Shown here: one piece after another, positions 16,607 through 48,681 of the stretch
Layout of the letters: each line of letters starts with the position of its first letter
Numbering within the stretch: the stretch's first letter is position 1
From: Escherichia coli
GTDB lineage: Bacteria > Pseudomonadota > Gammaproteobacteria > Enterobacterales > Enterobacteriaceae
NCBI RefSeq assembly: GCF_044324785.1
Contig: NZ_CP172127.1
Strand: one strand, 5' to 3'
DNA: 64,000 nt
Notes under the pieces: model-generated
The model's database searches: none
The model's input: the letters and a program-made list of their open reading frames with translations, nothing else
What the model was told of the DNA's origin: nothing
Position numbers and translations under genes: made by a program

Positions 16607-18006
16607 ACACTCGCCAGCTACTGAGCGTCGGTATCGATATCGGCACCACCACCACCCAGGTGATCTTCTCCCACCTGGAACTGGTTAACCGTGCGGCGGT
16701 GTCGCAGGTGCCGCGCTACGAATTCATCAAACGCGAAATTAGCTGGCAAAGCCCGGTGTTCTTTACCCCTGTCGATAAACAGGGTGGTTTAAAAGAAGCG
16801 GAACTGAAATCGCTGATTTTAGAGCAATATCAGGCTGCGGGCATTGCGCCGGAAAGCGTTGATTCTGGTGCCATCATCATCACCGGTGAAAGCGCGAAAA
16901 CCCGCAACGCTCGCCCGGCGGTGATGACGCTCTCCCAGTCGCTGGGCGATTTTGTCGTCGCCAGCGCCGGGCCGCATCTCGAATCCGTGATCGCCGGTCA
17001 CGGTGCCGGGGCGCAAACCCTTTCTGAACAACGGCTGTGTCGGGTACTGAATATCGACATCGGCGGTGGCACCGCGAACTACGCCCTGTTCGATGCCGGA
17101 AAAATCAGCGGCACTGCCTGCCTCAACGTTGGCGGTCGCCTGCTGGAAACCGACAGCCAGGGGCGCGTGGTTTACGCTCATATACCGGGGCAGATGATTG
17201 TGGATGAGTGCTTCGGTGCAGGCACTGACGCCCGTTCGCTGACCGGCACGCAGTTGGTGCAGGTTACCCGGCGGATGGCAGAACTGATTGTCGAAGTGAT
17301 TGACGGAACGCTCTCGCCGCTCGCGCAGGCATTGATGCAAACCGGTTTGTTGCCCGCAGGTGTTACGCCCGAAATCATTACGCTTTCTGGCGGCGTGGGC
17401 GAATGTTATCGCCACCAGCCCGCCGACCCGTTCTGTTTTGCCGATATCGGCCCGCTTCTGGCAACGGCGCTGCATGACCATCAGCGCCTGCGTGAGATGA
17501 ACGTGCAGTTTCCAGCGCAAACCGTGCGCGCCACGGTGATTGGCGCGGGCGCACATACCCTTTCGCTCTCTGGCAGCACAATCTGGCTGGAGGGCGTACA
17601 ACTGCCGCTGCGCAATTTGCCGGTGGCGATCCCAATTGATGAAACGGATCTGGTGAGTGCCTGGCAACAGGCGCTGATTCAGCTGGATCTTTGCCCCAAA
17701 ACTGACGCGTACGTGCTGGCGCTTCCCGCCTCGCTGCCTGTGCGTTACGCCGCGGTACTGACGGTCATCAACGCGCTGGTCGATTTCGTCGCGCGTTTTC
17801 CGAATCCGCATCCCCTGCTGGTGGTGGCCGGGCAGGACTTTGGTAAAGCTCTGGGCATGTTGTTGCGCCCACAGCTACAACAACTCCCGTTGGCAGTCAT
17901 TGACGAAGTGATTGTCCGCGCGGGGGACTATATCGACATTGGTACGCCTCTTTTTGGCGGATCGGTTGTGCCGGTGACGGTGAAATCACTCGCATTTCCT
18001 TCCTGA
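16603..18006 (+). CDS. eutA: ethanolamine ammonia-lyase reactivase
   Basis: 467-aa ORF with GTG start overlapping the eutH stop; operon position. Confidence 0.85.
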   Translation: MNTRQLLSVGIDIGTTTTQVIFSHLELVNRAAVSQVPRYEFIKREISWQSPVFFTPVDKQGGLKEAELKSLILEQYQAAGIAPESVDSGAIIITGESAKTRNARPAVMTLSQSLGDFVVASAGPHLESVIAGHGAGAQTLSEQRLCRVLNIDIGGGTANYALFDAGKISGTACLNVGGRLLETDSQGRVVYAHIPGQMIVDECFGAGTDARSLTGTQLVQVTRRMAELIVEVIDGTLSPLAQALMQTGLLPAGVTPEIITLSGGVGECYRHQPADPFCFADIGPLLATALHDHQRLREMNVQFPAQTVRATVIGAGAHTLSLSGSTIWLEGVQLPLRNLPVAIPIDETDLVSAWQQALIQLDLCPKTDAYVLALPASLPVRYAAVLTVINALVDFVARFPNPHPLLVVAGQDFGKALGMLLRPQLQQLPLAVIDEVIVRAGDYIDIGTPLFGGSVVPVTVKSLAFPS

Positions 18007-20965: not shown

Positions 20966-21466
20966 ATGATCAATGCACTGGGATTGCTGGAAGTGGACGG
21001 CATGGTCGCCGCGATAGATGCTGCGGATGCCATGCTCAAAGCAGCTAACGTTCGTCTGCTCAGTCACGAAGTGCTTGACCCTGGTCGCCTAACGCTGGTG
21101 GTGGAAGGCGATCTGGCGGCGTGTCGTGCGGCGCTGGACGCAGGTTGTGCTGCCGCGATGCGTACCGGGCGTGTCATCAGCCGTAAGGAGATCGGTCGGC
21201 CAGACGATGACACCCAGTGGCTGGTTACTGGCTTTAACCGCCAGCCGAAGCAACCCGTAAAGGAACCCGACGCGCCAGTTATCGTCGCGGAATCTGCTGA
21301 CGAGTTGTTGGCGCTGTTAACATCAGTACGTCAGGGAATGACGGCAGGAGAAGTGGCTGCCCACTTTGGCTGGCCGCTGGAAAAAGCCAGAAATGCGCTC
21401 GAACAGCTCTTTTCTGCCGGGACGTTACGTAAACGCAGTAGTCGTTATCGTCTCAAGCCCCATTAA
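20966..21466 (+). CDS. eutK: BMC-H shell protein with C-terminal extension
   Basis: 166 aa from ATG at 20966 (MINALGLLEVDGMVAAIDAADAMLKAANV...), GGAGG 7 nt upstream; track ORF starts 6 nt earlier at a TTG. Confidence 0.85.
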   Translation: MINALGLLEVDGMVAAIDAADAMLKAANVRLLSHEVLDPGRLTLVVEGDLAACRAALDAGCAAAMRTGRVISRKEIGRPDDDTQWLVTGFNRQPKQPVKEPDAPVIVAESADELLALLTSVRQGMTAGEVAAHFGWPLEKARNALEQLFSAGTLRKRSSRYRLKPH

Positions 21467-21511
21467 CCTGTCGGAGGTGCCGGGTGTCCTACAACACCCG
21501 GCATTAACATC

Positions 21512-22564
21512 ATGAAAAAGACCCGTACAGCCAATTTGCACCATCTTTATCATGAACCCTTACCCGAAAACCTGAAGCTCACGCCGAAGGTCGAAGTGGA
21601 TAATGTTCATCAACGACAGACAACGGATGTCTATGAACATGCTTTGACAATTACCGCCTGGCAGCAGATTTACGATCAGCTGCATCCGGGCAAGTTTCAT
21701 GGTGAATTTACGGAAATTCTACTCGATGATATTCAGGTTTTTCGTGAATACACCGGTCTGGCGCTGCGTCAGTCGTGCCTGGTCTGGCCGAACTCGTTCT
21801 GGTTTGGCATTCCGGCGACGCGCGGTGAGCAGGGATTTATCGGTTCGCAATGTCTGGGAAGTGCAGAAATAGCCACGCGGCCTGGCGGCACTGAGTTTGA
21901 ATTGAGTACGCCGGACGATTACACCATCCTTGGCGTGGTGCTTTCTGAAGATGTCATTACCCGGCAGGCTAACTTTTTGCATAACCCGGAGCGGGTGTTG
22001 CATATGTTGCGTCACCAGTCGGCGCTGGAAGTGAAAGAGCAGCATAAAGCCGCGCTGTGGGGCTTTGTCCAACAGGCGCTGGCGACGTTTTGCGAGAACC
22101 CGGAAAATCTCCATCAGCCTGCAGTGCGAAAAGTGTTGGGGGATAATTTGCTCATGGCGATGGGGGCGATGCTGGAAGAAGCGCAACCAATGGTGACGGC
22201 GGAAAGCATCAGTCATCAGAGTTACCGTAGATTACTTTCCCGCGCCCGTGAATATGTGCTGGAAAATATGTCTGAGCCGGTGACGGTGCTGGACTTGTGT
22301 AATCAACTGCATGTCAGTCGCCGCACGCTACAAAACGCGTTTCACGCTATTTTAGGCATTGGCCCGAACGCGTGGCTGAAACGCATTCGCCTGAACGCCG
22401 TACGCCGCGAACTGATAAGCCCGTGGTCGCAAAGCACAACGGTAAAAGACGCCGCCATGCAGTGGGGATTCTGGCATCTGGGGCAATTCGCCACGGATTA
22501 CCAGCAGCTGTTTGCCGAGAAGCCGTCACTGACGCTGCATCAGCGGATGCGGGAATGGGGGTGA
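21512..22564 (+). CDS. eutR: AraC-family transcriptional activator of the eut operon
   Basis: 350 aa, C-terminal AraC-type HTH; last gene of the operon. Confidence 0.85.
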
Positions 22565-22569
22565 GGGAG

Positions 22570-23472
<903 letters not shown>

Positions 23473-24342
23473 TTACCGCTTTCTCGAGTGTGCTTTCTGG
23501 TTGTCAAACCAGTGAAAATAACTGATCACGCCTTCGGCAATCGCTGTGGCGATTTTCTGGCGAAATGCTGCCGTGCCTAACAGCCGCTCTTCTTCCGGGT
23601 TGGTGATAAACGAGGTTTCCACCAGCACCGAAGGAACCGACGGCGATTTCAACACCACAAACGCGGCTTGTTCGGTGTTGCGGCTGTGCAGTTTATGCAC
23701 CGGCTTAATCTTTTTCAGAATATGCGAGCCGAGCGTCAGGCTGTTTTTAATAGTATCGGTTTGCACCAGATCAAACAGCACTTGCTGCAATAGGTGATCC
23801 TTGTCAGTCGCCTTTTTACCGGCAACTTCATCGGCGCGGTTTTCGCGTTCAGACAGGTATTTCGCCATTGCGCTACTTGCCCCACGGTTAGAGAGGGCAA
23901 ATACCGAAGCACCGGCAGCTTTCGGGTTGGTAAAGCCGTCGGCATGAATTGACATAAACAGATCTGCGCCATGTTTATGGGCGATTTCAACGCGATCGTA
24001 AAGTGGGATAAACGTATCGCCAGAACGCGTTAAACGCGCATCAATCCCATGATTACGCAAAATGGAACGGACGTTTTTAGCAATCGCCAGCACCACATGT
24101 TTTTCTTTCGAACCGTTGCGCCCGATCGCTCCGGTATCAATCCCGCCGTGGCCTGGATCGAGAACAACGACACGTTTGCCGCCAGATTTTTTGGCTTTCG
24201 GCTTGCTGTGTCCGTTGCTGGTTTTTAAAGGTTCGTCTTTGGCGATGGCTTGCGACATTCCTGACAACGTCAGCGCTGCAAGTCCTGCTTTCAGCACCTG
24301 GCGGCGCGAAGTGAGTGTTTTTAGTGGTTTAAAAGTGCTCAT
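23473..24342 (-). CDS. amiA: N-acetylmuramoyl-L-alanine amidase A (Tat-exported)
   Basis: 289 aa with twin-arginine signal (SRRQVLKAGLAAL); immediately upstream of hemF. Confidence 0.9.
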   Translation of the reverse strand: MSTFKPLKTLTSRRQVLKAGLAALTLSGMSQAIAKDEPLKTSNGHSKPKAKKSGGKRVVVLDPGHGGIDTGAIGRNGSKEKHVVLAIAKNVRSILRNHGIDARLTRSGDTFIPLYDRVEIAHKHGADLFMSIHADGFTNPKAAGASVFALSNRGASSAMAKYLSERENRADEVAGKKATDKDHLLQQVLFDLVQTDTIKNSLTLGSHILKKIKPVHKLHSRNTEQAAFVVLKSPSVPSVLVETSFITNPEEERLLGTAAFRQKIATAIAEGVISYFHWFDNQKAHSRKR

Positions 24343-24555
24343 ACGGCCTGAGTTGTAATAATAAAGTTCCAGATGTTATATCGTATCGCGTAATCCGTTA
24401 CGACCGTTTGCTGTTGAGAATTGTTTTACTTTTCATTTCAATAGTTGACAACTCCCCATTATGCCACTTTTTCAACCGATTTTCGTCAGATATTGGCTAA
24501 TTCGACCGTTCACGCCATAATCAGCCTTTTAACCCGCAAAAAGGTAACGAATACC

Positions 24556-24981
24556 ATGGAGATACGCGTATTTCGCCAGGAAGATTTCGAAGAGGTCATC
24601 ACCCTTTGGGAGCGTTGCGACTTGCTGCGTCCGTGGAACGATCCGGAAATGGACATCGAGCGTAAGATGAACCATGACGTCAGTTTGTTTCTGGTCGCTG
24701 AGGTGAACGGTGAAGTGGTCGGAACGGTGATGGGCGGTTATGACGGGCATCGCGGGTCTGCTTATTATCTTGGCGTGCATCCAGAGTTTCGTGGGCGTGG
24801 GATTGCTAATGCGTTGCTTAATCGGCTGGAGAAAAAGCTGATTGCTCGCGGCTGCCCGAAAATTCAGATCAACGTGCCGGAAGATAACGACATGGTGCTC
24901 GGAATGTATGAACGCCTGGGATATGAACACGCCGACGTGCTGAGTCTGGGTAAGCGTTTGATTGAAGATGAAGAGTACTGA
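24556..24981 (+). CDS. ypeA: GNAT-family N-acetyltransferase
   Basis: 141 aa from ATG at 24556 ([23 protein letters not shown]...); GNAT motifs. Confidence 0.8.
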
Positions 24982-27070: not shown

Positions 27071-27107
27071 AGGCCAGCCAGTAACACAACTGACTGGCCT
27101 TTTTATT
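27071..27107. terminator. bidirectional rho-independent terminator after yfeX
   Basis: aggccag...ctggcct stem flanked by aaa and ttttatt. Confidence 0.55.
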
Positions 27108-27133
27108 ACTGCTTTAACGCCGCATACACTTGA

Positions 27134-27223
27134 TCAACTACTTTCTGTCAGAACAGGGTATTTTGCGGCGCTGACGCTACAACTAACAGCCAGCAGAGAA
27201 AGATAGAGCATTGTCCGTTTCAT
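27134..27223 (-). pseudogene. 29-codon 5' remnant of a secreted protein at the position expected for yfeW (PBP4B); probable deletion remnant
   Basis: Minus-strand ATG 4 nt after the murP stop encodes MKRTMLYLSLLAVSCSVSAAKYPVLTESS then stop; signal-peptide-like; only about 180 bp separate murP from yfeX. Confidence 0.4.
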
Positions 27224-34388: not shown

Positions 34389-35475
34389 GATTGCCAATAT
34401 TAAGAAGTCTTTTGGTCGCACCCAGGTGCTGAACGATATCTCACTGGATATTCCTTCTGGTCAGATGGTCGCATTGCTGGGGCCGTCCGGTTCCGGGAAA
34501 ACCACGCTGCTGCGCATTATCGCCGGGCTGGAGCATCAAACCAGCGGGCATATTCGCTTCCACGGCACCGACGTCAGCCGCCTGCATGCGCGCGATCGTA
34601 AAGTTGGTTTCGTGTTCCAGCACTATGCGCTGTTCCGCCATATGACGGTGTTCGACAATATCGCTTTCGGCCTGACGGTGCTGCCGCGTCGCGAGCGCCC
34701 GAATGCCGCAGCCATCAAAGCGAAAGTGACAAAATTGCTGGAGATGGTGCAGCTTGCGCATCTGGCGGATCGTTATCCGGCACAGCTTTCCGGCGGGCAG
34801 AAACAGCGCGTGGCGCTGGCGCGTGCGCTCGCTGTGGAACCGCAAATTCTGCTGCTTGATGAACCGTTTGGCGCGCTGGATGCGCAGGTGCGTAAAGAGC
34901 TGCGTCGCTGGCTGCGTCAGTTACATGAAGAGCTGAAATTCACCAGCGTGTTTGTGACCCATGACCAGGAAGAAGCGACCGAAGTAGCCGATCGTGTAGT
35001 GGTGATGAGCCAGGGCAATATCGAGCAGGCTGATGCACCGGACCAGGTATGGCGCGAACCAGCGACCCGTTTTGTACTCGAATTTATGGGCGAAGTGAAC
35101 CGCCTGCAGGGAACCATTCGCGGCGGGCAGTTCCATGTTGGCGCACATCGCTGGCCGCTGGGCTATACACCTGCGTATCAGGGGCCAGTGGATCTCTTCC
35201 TGCGTCCGTGGGAAGTGGATATCAGCCGCCGTACCAGCCTCGATTCGCCGCTGCCGGTACAGGTACTGGAAGCCAGCCCGAAAGGCCACTACACCCAATT
35301 AGTCGTGCAGCCGCTGGGGTGGTACAACGAAGCGCTGACGGTCGTGATGCACGGCGACGACGCCCCGCAACGTGGCGAGCGTTTATTCGTTGGTCTGCAA
35401 CATGCGCGGCTGTATAACGGCGACGAGCGTATTGAAACCCGCGATGAGGAACTTGCTCTCGCACAAAGCGCCTGA
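34378..35475 (+). CDS. cysA: sulfate/thiosulfate ABC transporter ATP-binding protein
   Basis: 365 aa with Walker A (GPSGSGKTT) and ABC signature (LSGGQKQR). Confidence 0.9.
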
Positions 35476-48261: not shown

Positions 48262-48593
48262 ATATCGATCTGAGTCGTTTTTTCAACAGGATTTGGAAGG
48301 GATGCATTCAAAGACAAACTCTGCTCTTTCTCCTGCGCCTTTTCTGCCTGCTGTCTTTGCAACTGCGCCAGTTGTGTTTCCAGTAGGGTGATTTGCTGCT
48401 GAATCAATTCGGCCTGTTTTTGCTTGTCTTCAGCACTGCCGCTAGTGTCTGCAATCTCTTTAATTTGTTGAGTGAGTTTGATGATTTGCTGACTTATCCG
48501 CGCAATTTGTGAAGCAACATCGCTACCTTCTGATGCCCTGTTACTACTCTGTGTTTGTATGGAAGGAATTGAAGTTGAAGAGATAGTGGCCAT
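48252..48593 (-). CDS. small Q-rich coiled-coil protein, FlxA-like
   Basis: 113-aa ORF with GAGGA 6 nt upstream of ATG; S/T-rich N-terminus then heptad-like Q/L/I repeats ([18 protein letters not shown]...[23 protein letters not shown]); overlaps the yfeR 3' end by 10 bp. Confidence 0.5.
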
Positions 48594-48681
48594 TGTTCAG
48601 TCCTCGTCACTGTACGAGGTAATATCGGCAGAAGAACAAGGAACTTGAGAAGAAAAATCAATCTTACAAACCGCATATAGC

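Follow-up and report, generated by a model that had tools for sequence, protein, structure and literature searches.

The eutR/hemF junction of Escherichia coli: transcript ends at a five-base-pair meeting of two convergent genes

Introduction

Where two genes are transcribed towards each other and almost nothing separates their stop codons, it has to be asked where each transcript ends and whether its end affects the neighbouring gene. The question is raised by eutR and hemF of Escherichia coli, which belong to ethanolamine catabolism and haem biosynthesis respectively, and which meet in the stretch of DNA analysed here, 64,000 nucleotides of contig NZ_CP172127.1 (assembly GCF_044324785.1; hereafter the window). 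A first-pass annotation of the window had proposed that the two stop codons leave no room for terminators, that the transcripts must therefore overlap at their 3' ends, and that this could produce mutual antisense effects or transcriptional interference between the two pathways. Here, we ask which parts of this proposal are borne out by the sequence, by comparison with other genomes and by published transcript data from K-12, and what the most probable account of the junction is.

Organization of the junction

The genes that meet at the junction, and the spacer between them, are as follows (positions in the window).

21512..22564, plus strand: eutR coding sequence (350 aa), the final gene of the eut operon, for an AraC-type activator (open reading frame list, sequence, RefSeq annotation of matching loci)
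22565..22569: GGGAG, the 5-bp spacer between the eutR and hemF stops, which is also the loop of the junction hairpin described below (sequence)
22570..23469, minus strand: hemF coding sequence, 299 aa from ATG, oxygen-dependent coproporphyrinogen III oxidase (open reading frame list, RefSeq)
23473..24342, minus strand: amiA coding sequence, ending 3 nt upstream of the hemF ATG (open reading frame list)

Direct reading of 22540-22600 gives ...ATG CGG GAA TGG GGG TGA GGGAG TTA CAC CCA ATC CCT GAC..., in which the eutR stop is TGA (22562-22564, plus strand) and the hemF stop is TAA (22570-22572, minus strand). The reading agrees with the open reading frame list, and the gene names, coordinates and 5-bp stop spacing given by the first-pass annotation are right. 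The two genes form a convergent pair, lying on opposite strands and tail to tail, with a stop spacing shorter than a terminator. A GTG start places the beginning of hemF at 23472 instead of 23469. The amiA gene abuts hemF, and the two are probably one co-transcribed unit.

The same geometry is already annotated in K-12 MG1655, where RefSeq places the end of hemF at 2554124 and the start of eutR at 2554130, an identical 5-bp gap, and where amiA ends at 2553221 and hemF starts at 2553225. The pair has stood in the K-12 annotation for decades, and genome-wide studies have covered both junctions of this kind and the overlap of 3' ends. The window differs from K-12 in having no CPZ-55 cryptic prophage between eutB and eutA (~17984-18006); because this prophage, which splits the K-12 operon, is absent, the eut operon upstream of eutR is uninterrupted. 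Also missing relative to K-12 are xapRBA-yfeN, yfeS and most of yfeW (48262-48672, 36525 and 27100-27141).

Conservation in Escherichia and related genera

Of 5,426 complete E. coli genomes, 5,395 give an unbroken match to a 121-nt probe that has the junction at its centre. In the junction region the window is 97-98.6% identical to K-12 and to E. coli N3, and the RefSeq annotation of N3 likewise has a 5-bp gap between eutR and hemF. N3 is the closest DNA match to the window, and its eutR (locus L001, 1513-2564) is annotated as a frameshifted pseudogene. With the exception of E. whittamii, the spacer is 5 bp long in every Escherichia lineage representative compared, while its bases differ (GGGAG, ATAAA or GGTAA) and both stop codons alternate between TGA and TAA. 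This exact spacing throughout the lineages is compatible with simple inheritance, and constraint is also possible. Judged from these sequences, the junction appears fixed in Escherichia, the E. whittamii insertion apart.

In E. whittamii a 1.8-kb insertion separates the two stops by 1,784 bp (locus L004, 5060-6843). Within it are a gene for a TacA-like antitoxin (PF08681, E 2.7e-25), a GNAT-like open reading frame of 171 aa with a weak, sub-threshold match to PF13508, and an open reading frame of 223 aa that matches nothing in Pfam. EutR of this species has 352 aa and the C-terminus ...QELGGG. In E. coli EC42405 the alignment of the junction probe begins only at query base 61, where the hemF stop starts, and the breakpoint of a rearrangement or deletion therefore lies exactly at the junction. 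Escherichia sp. MOD1-EC7003 and one genome of Citrobacter amalonaticus have a truncated eutR match (loci L037 and L039).

Beyond Escherichia, a scan of one genome per species yielded 63 distinct eutR loci. Convergent eutR and hemF are found in Escherichia, Citrobacter, the Klebsiella oxytoca group, Salmonella, Pluralibacter, Pseudocitrobacter and Intestinirhabdus, and the gap between their stops varies widely.

Escherichia: 5 bp
Pluralibacter (a metagenome-assembled genome): 8 bp
Intestinirhabdus: 19 bp
Citrobacter, Klebsiella, Salmonella and Pseudocitrobacter, most loci: 54-152 bp, with REP/BIME-like palindromes throughout
Four more loci: 425, 910 and 973 bp (gene ends intact) and 514 bp (eutR match truncated)
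E. whittamii: 1,784 bp

REP/BIME elements were recognized as extragenic palindromic units of ~35 nt with a GCCGGATG / GCCTGATG-type consensus. The Escherichia junction has none, 5 bp being too short for any. Distant eutR genes do not adjoin hemF, and several of them have clear hairpin-plus-T terminators downstream. The convergent order is thus inherited, and the 54-152 bp of the sister genera, together with the insertion in E. whittamii, argue that tight spacing is neither general nor required. One metagenome-assembled genome, labelled Citrobacter sp. HRGM_Genome_0066, holds two eutR-hemF loci (L003 and L035), of which one is E. coli-like, with a 5-bp gap and 97.5% DNA identity to the window, and the other is Citrobacter-like, with a 54-bp gap and REP-like palindromes; the bin is therefore probably mixed or chimeric.

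The junction hairpin

A consensus scan of 3.1 kb detected no terminator-like site at the junction; it returned two weak sites against 4.6 expected, both elsewhere. As 5 bp cannot hold a terminator and none lies nearby, each transcription unit must end inside the partner gene. In structural terms, then, the first-pass annotation was correct that terminators have no room and that the 3' ends must overlap. A search of 21000-24600 against Rfam at E <= 1 matched no family.

Local folding does reveal one structure at the junction.

22551..22583, both strands: imperfect inverted repeat of three 4-bp stem segments with single mismatches between them and a 5-nt loop formed by the spacer (local folding)

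The final codons of the two genes make up this hairpin, with both stops falling within its stem. A repeat search with a 6-nt seed found no exact inverted repeat at the junction, and the interrupted hairpin emerged only from local folding. Immediately downstream of it come GACCUUAAUAAAC on the plus strand and GCAUCCGCUGAUG on the minus strand, neither of which is a T run. An intrinsic terminator at the junction is ruled out by the scan together with this absence of a U run.

The local fold has a free energy of -16.6 kcal/mol on the plus strand and -13.5 kcal/mol on the minus strand. Against dinucleotide shuffles these values correspond to z-scores of -1.64 and -0.95, with 12 and 37 of 200 shuffles, respectively, folding as well or better. 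Longer folds around the junction have overall z-scores of -1.2 to -1.9, and on the plus strand they prefer another register. The hairpin is found in all Escherichia representatives. Over 28 loci from several genera its arms pair in 83% of cells, against 29-42% in slid controls; this advantage is no surprise, as the structure itself was taken from one of these sequences. Covariation between the arms in the same 28 loci is not above that of column shuffles (165, 342 and 313 of 500). An apparent compensatory change at the third position of an arginine codon disappeared once all loci were tabulated. A structure kept by selection was rejected, the fold being within the range of shuffles and covariation being absent.

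The arms pair because the two proteins end in similar residues: EutR ends in ...M-R-E/Q-W-G/A/M-stop and HemF in ...V-R-D-W-V-stop. The possibility that protein function fixes the C-terminus of EutR was discarded, since distant EutR tails vary and the R-x-W-x ending is clade-specific; the same ending occurs in Buttiauxella, whose eutR does not adjoin hemF. We read the junction hairpin as a by-product of coding sequence.

Rho-dependent transcript ends

A Rho-dependent terminator has C-rich, G-poor untranslated RNA, ~70-80 nt, upstream of the termination zone. This composition is found downstream of both stops, and a published K-12 region of Rho-dependent termination can be placed in the window by coordinate transfer.

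22573..22652, plus strand: candidate Rho loading (rut) region after the eutR stop, 30 C and 12 G in 80 nt (composition)
22520..22569, minus strand: candidate Rho loading region after the hemF stop, 22 C and 10 G in 50 nt (composition)
22029..22054, minus strand: window equivalent of the K-12 Rho region in eutR (K-12 copy at 34640-34665 of locus L066; coordinate transfer)

Among all 80-nt windows of the 64 kb, both strands included, the tract after the eutR stop ranks at the 99.7th percentile; among 50-nt windows, that after the hemF stop ranks at the 99.0th. Over the first 50 nt past the two stops, the C-rich, G-poor composition ranks between the 98th and the 99.7th percentile.

In K-12, a Rho termination region is listed at 2554640 on the plus strand, antisense to eutR and in the sense of hemF (Adams 2021, PMC7815308, supplementary file 2), with a Rho score of 4.5 (p = 8.9e-8). 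Reads upstream and downstream of this position number 78 and 18 in untreated cells, and 102 and 106 with bicyclomycin; as the regions are defined by 800-nt windows, the fraction of polymerases stopping near the junction is not resolvable from these counts. The position is 516 nt past the hemF stop and corresponds to ~22054 in the window. Neither hemF nor eutR has a 3' end in the curated Term-seq list of the same study, and both genes are absent from the SMRT-Cappable-seq supplements. One base 3' of the equivalent of 2554640, on the hemF-sense strand inside eutR, begins a weak 5-bp hairpin, GCGGC-TTTAT-GCTGC, followed by TCTTTCACTT. It is a match of the terminator-like scan, and such matches are not enriched over shuffles; this hairpin at 22029-22054 may mark a site of pausing or processing, or may be there by coincidence, given the 800-nt windows.

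Read-through in the hemF sense is thus documented in K-12 to end by Rho inside eutR (Adams 2021). In the opposite direction, the C-rich, G-poor tract after the eutR stop leads us to infer that eutR read-through ends by Rho inside hemF. Indirect evidence for transcription in this direction comes from the RNA duplex inside hemF described below and from E. coli 536, in which a lacZ transcriptional fusion beside the eutR stop was built to report on the eut operon; such a reporter depends on transcription running beyond this stop.

The K-12 data include a much stronger Rho region at 2558053 on the plus strand, antisense to eutB (~18.6 kb in the window, minus strand), with 523 and 24 reads upstream and downstream in untreated cells, 371 and 399 with bicyclomycin, and a Rho score of 23 (Adams 2021, PMC7815308). 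This implies that the K-12 eut operon holds substantial internal antisense transcription at eutB.

Convergent overlap and antisense RNA

Tight convergent junctions are common in E. coli. In 100 kb of the K-12 annotation, five of 16 convergent pairs have gaps of <=5 bp, and of these five all but hemF/eutR overlap outright.

yfeH/ypeB: -4
hemF/eutR: +5
zapC/ycbX: -4
sxy/yccS: -38
yccX/tusE: -4

The 5-bp gap is statistically unremarkable. Complementary 3' ends are reported for 276 of 370 convergent operons (75%), with a mean overlap of 286 nt (Conway 2014, PMC4161252), and at this frequency 3' overlap alone does not imply regulation. Among 704 convergent pairs of E. coli, 207 have a REP element between the genes (2026 preprint).

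Antisense RNA within hemF itself is indicated by one published duplex.

23149-23169, minus strand: 21-nt RNase III-type sense/antisense duplex inside hemF (p19 capture, Huang 2020 dataset)

The distance from this duplex to the junction is ~0.6 kb; its coordinates fit K-12, and there is one mismatch in the window. A scan of 21400-24500 found no sigma-70-like promoter site for an antisense RNA near the junction. The duplex shows either that antisense RNA goes deeper into hemF than a short tail would, or that it has an unmapped promoter. Duplexes captured by p19 are reported to be far rarer at 3' overlaps than at 5' overlaps. As to the gene product, HemF is a dispensable, OxyR-induced isozyme of HemN, which is the main enzyme in unstressed cells (PMC9576991).

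Explanations of the junction

Three accounts of these observations can be compared, and the first concerns the hairpin at 22551-22583. It might be a coding-embedded bidirectional terminator driven by polymerase collision, or a shared 3' stabiliser that sets both mRNA ends, and would then stand in for the REP elements of the sister genera. The hairpin is centred exactly on the spacer, folds on both strands, is present in all Escherichia representatives and has arms that pair far more often than slid controls; moreover, the bidirectional terminators that have been described are unlike intrinsic terminators and need a stem-loop (bioRxiv 10.1101/2022.10.23.513370). However, its stability is within that of dinucleotide shuffles and the longer plus-strand folds take another register, while covariation does not go beyond shuffles, conserved codons explain the pairing and the advantage over slid controls follows from the origin of the structure in one of the sequences. 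Transcript mapping points the same way, as Adams 2021 has no Term-seq end for either gene and the termination on the hemF strand is sensitive to bicyclomycin and lies 0.5 kb downstream. We regard such a role of the hairpin as very unlikely. A second account gives the overlap itself a function: induction of eut would send polymerases and antisense RNA into hemF and lower HemF, and read-through from amiA-hemF, stronger under OxyR induction, would lower EutR and raise the threshold of eut induction, the proposed mechanisms being polymerase collision and cleavage of the RNA duplex by RNase III. Transcript overlap is geometrically unavoidable, hemF-sense RNA reaches into eutR in K-12 (Adams 2021) and p19 has captured a sense/antisense duplex within hemF; full-length induction is possible in the window, where the eut operon is intact without CPZ-55, and there is a precedent in the convergent mscL/arfA pair of E. 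coli, whose 3' complementarity is regulatory (PMC10070815). Yet nothing peculiar to eutR/hemF was found; overlap of this kind is typical of convergent operons, and 3' overlaps are reported to yield p19 duplexes far more rarely than 5' overlaps do. Rho reduces hemF read-through ~fourfold by ~0.5 kb, and without stress HemF is dispensable, HemN being the main enzyme. Selection on the arrangement is not visible either, the pair being insulated by REP-like palindromes in sister genera and split by 1.8 kb in E. whittamii. Cross-regulation is in our view unlikely, if somewhat less so than a terminating hairpin. The proposal of mutual antisense and interference accordingly stands for the structural overlap, given that there is no terminator and that a hemF-sense Rho region lies in eutR in K-12, whereas a regulatory link between eut and haem genes finds no support here.

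The two ideas can be joined in a bolder one, in which the REP-free 5-bp junction makes eut induction and hemF expression mutually antagonistic, with the hairpin as the point of collision or pausing; we hold this to be highly improbable. Were it true, the O2-dependent, OxyR-induced HemF would be shut off by head-on collisions and RNase III whenever the intact 17-gene eut operon was fully induced, as in a gut that is anaerobic and replete with B12, and induction of hemF by oxidative stress would damp EutR autoinduction.

What we consider probable is an ordinary minimal tail-to-tail junction, with antisense tails ended by Rho, a hairpin that is a by-product and little regulatory consequence. On this account, a polymerase leaving either gene would continue along the antisense strand of its partner. 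Release of the ribosome at the stop codon would expose untranslated, C-rich and G-poor RNA, onto which Rho would load, and Rho would terminate the read-through of eutR or hemF within a few hundred nucleotides. The outcome would be short antisense 3' tails that cover the 3' coding region of the partner, and we infer little or no regulatory consequence of this overlap.

Significance

The practical value of the junction is mainly to strain builders, and its wider importance is small. An insert placed "in the eutR-hemF intergenic region", as in E. coli 536, lies within both 3' untranslated regions and destroys the sole short hairpin. Deletion or over-expression of either gene can alter antisense transcription across the other. 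If cross-talk did prove true, the pair would be another natural case of regulation by convergent transcription, linking a nutrient pathway of the gut to a haem isozyme of oxidative stress.

Comparison with known systems

The closest general parallel is with the overlapping convergent operons of Conway 2014 (PMC4161252), in which, as here, the transcripts are obliged to enter each other's 3' regions; the eutR/hemF locus is highly conserved in E. coli. In many of those pairs the intergenic region holds an intrinsic terminator of low efficiency, whereas between eutR and hemF there is no room for one.

In the manner of termination, the pair resembles the untranslated and antisense RNAs that are ended by Rho (Adams 2021, PMC7815308, citing Peters 2012 and Dar & Sorek 2018). 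It shares with them a bicyclomycin-sensitive hemF-sense region in eutR and C-rich, G-poor RNA directly past both stops, and for this locus the Rho evidence covers one direction, in K-12 grown in LB, at the resolution of 800-nt windows.

REP/BIME elements between convergent genes, which are described as both dual terminators and blocks to RNA decay (bioRxiv 10.64898/2026.03.23.713779), are represented by the REP-like palindromes of the Citrobacter, Klebsiella and Salmonella eutR/hemF junctions. The Escherichia junction differs in having no REP, its sole palindrome being the weak one formed from coding ends. With the bidirectional terminators of Ju 2019 and Wang et al. (bioRxiv 10.1101/2022.10.23.513370) it shares a hairpin where convergent transcripts meet, lacking a canonical U run. 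That class is Rho-independent and has uniform 3' ends, whereas termination detected at eutR/hemF is Rho-dependent and 0.5 kb away; the stem-loop maintained by selection that marks the class of Ju 2019 was not found at eutR/hemF, where the hairpin is within chance (z -1.64 and -0.95) and shows no covariation over 28 loci.

The mscL/arfA pair (PMC10070815), finally, is likewise made up of tail-to-tail genes of Enterobacteriaceae in which the 3' untranslated region of one transcript is antisense to the 3' coding sequence of its partner. An experimentally demonstrated regulatory effect sets mscL/arfA apart from eutR/hemF.
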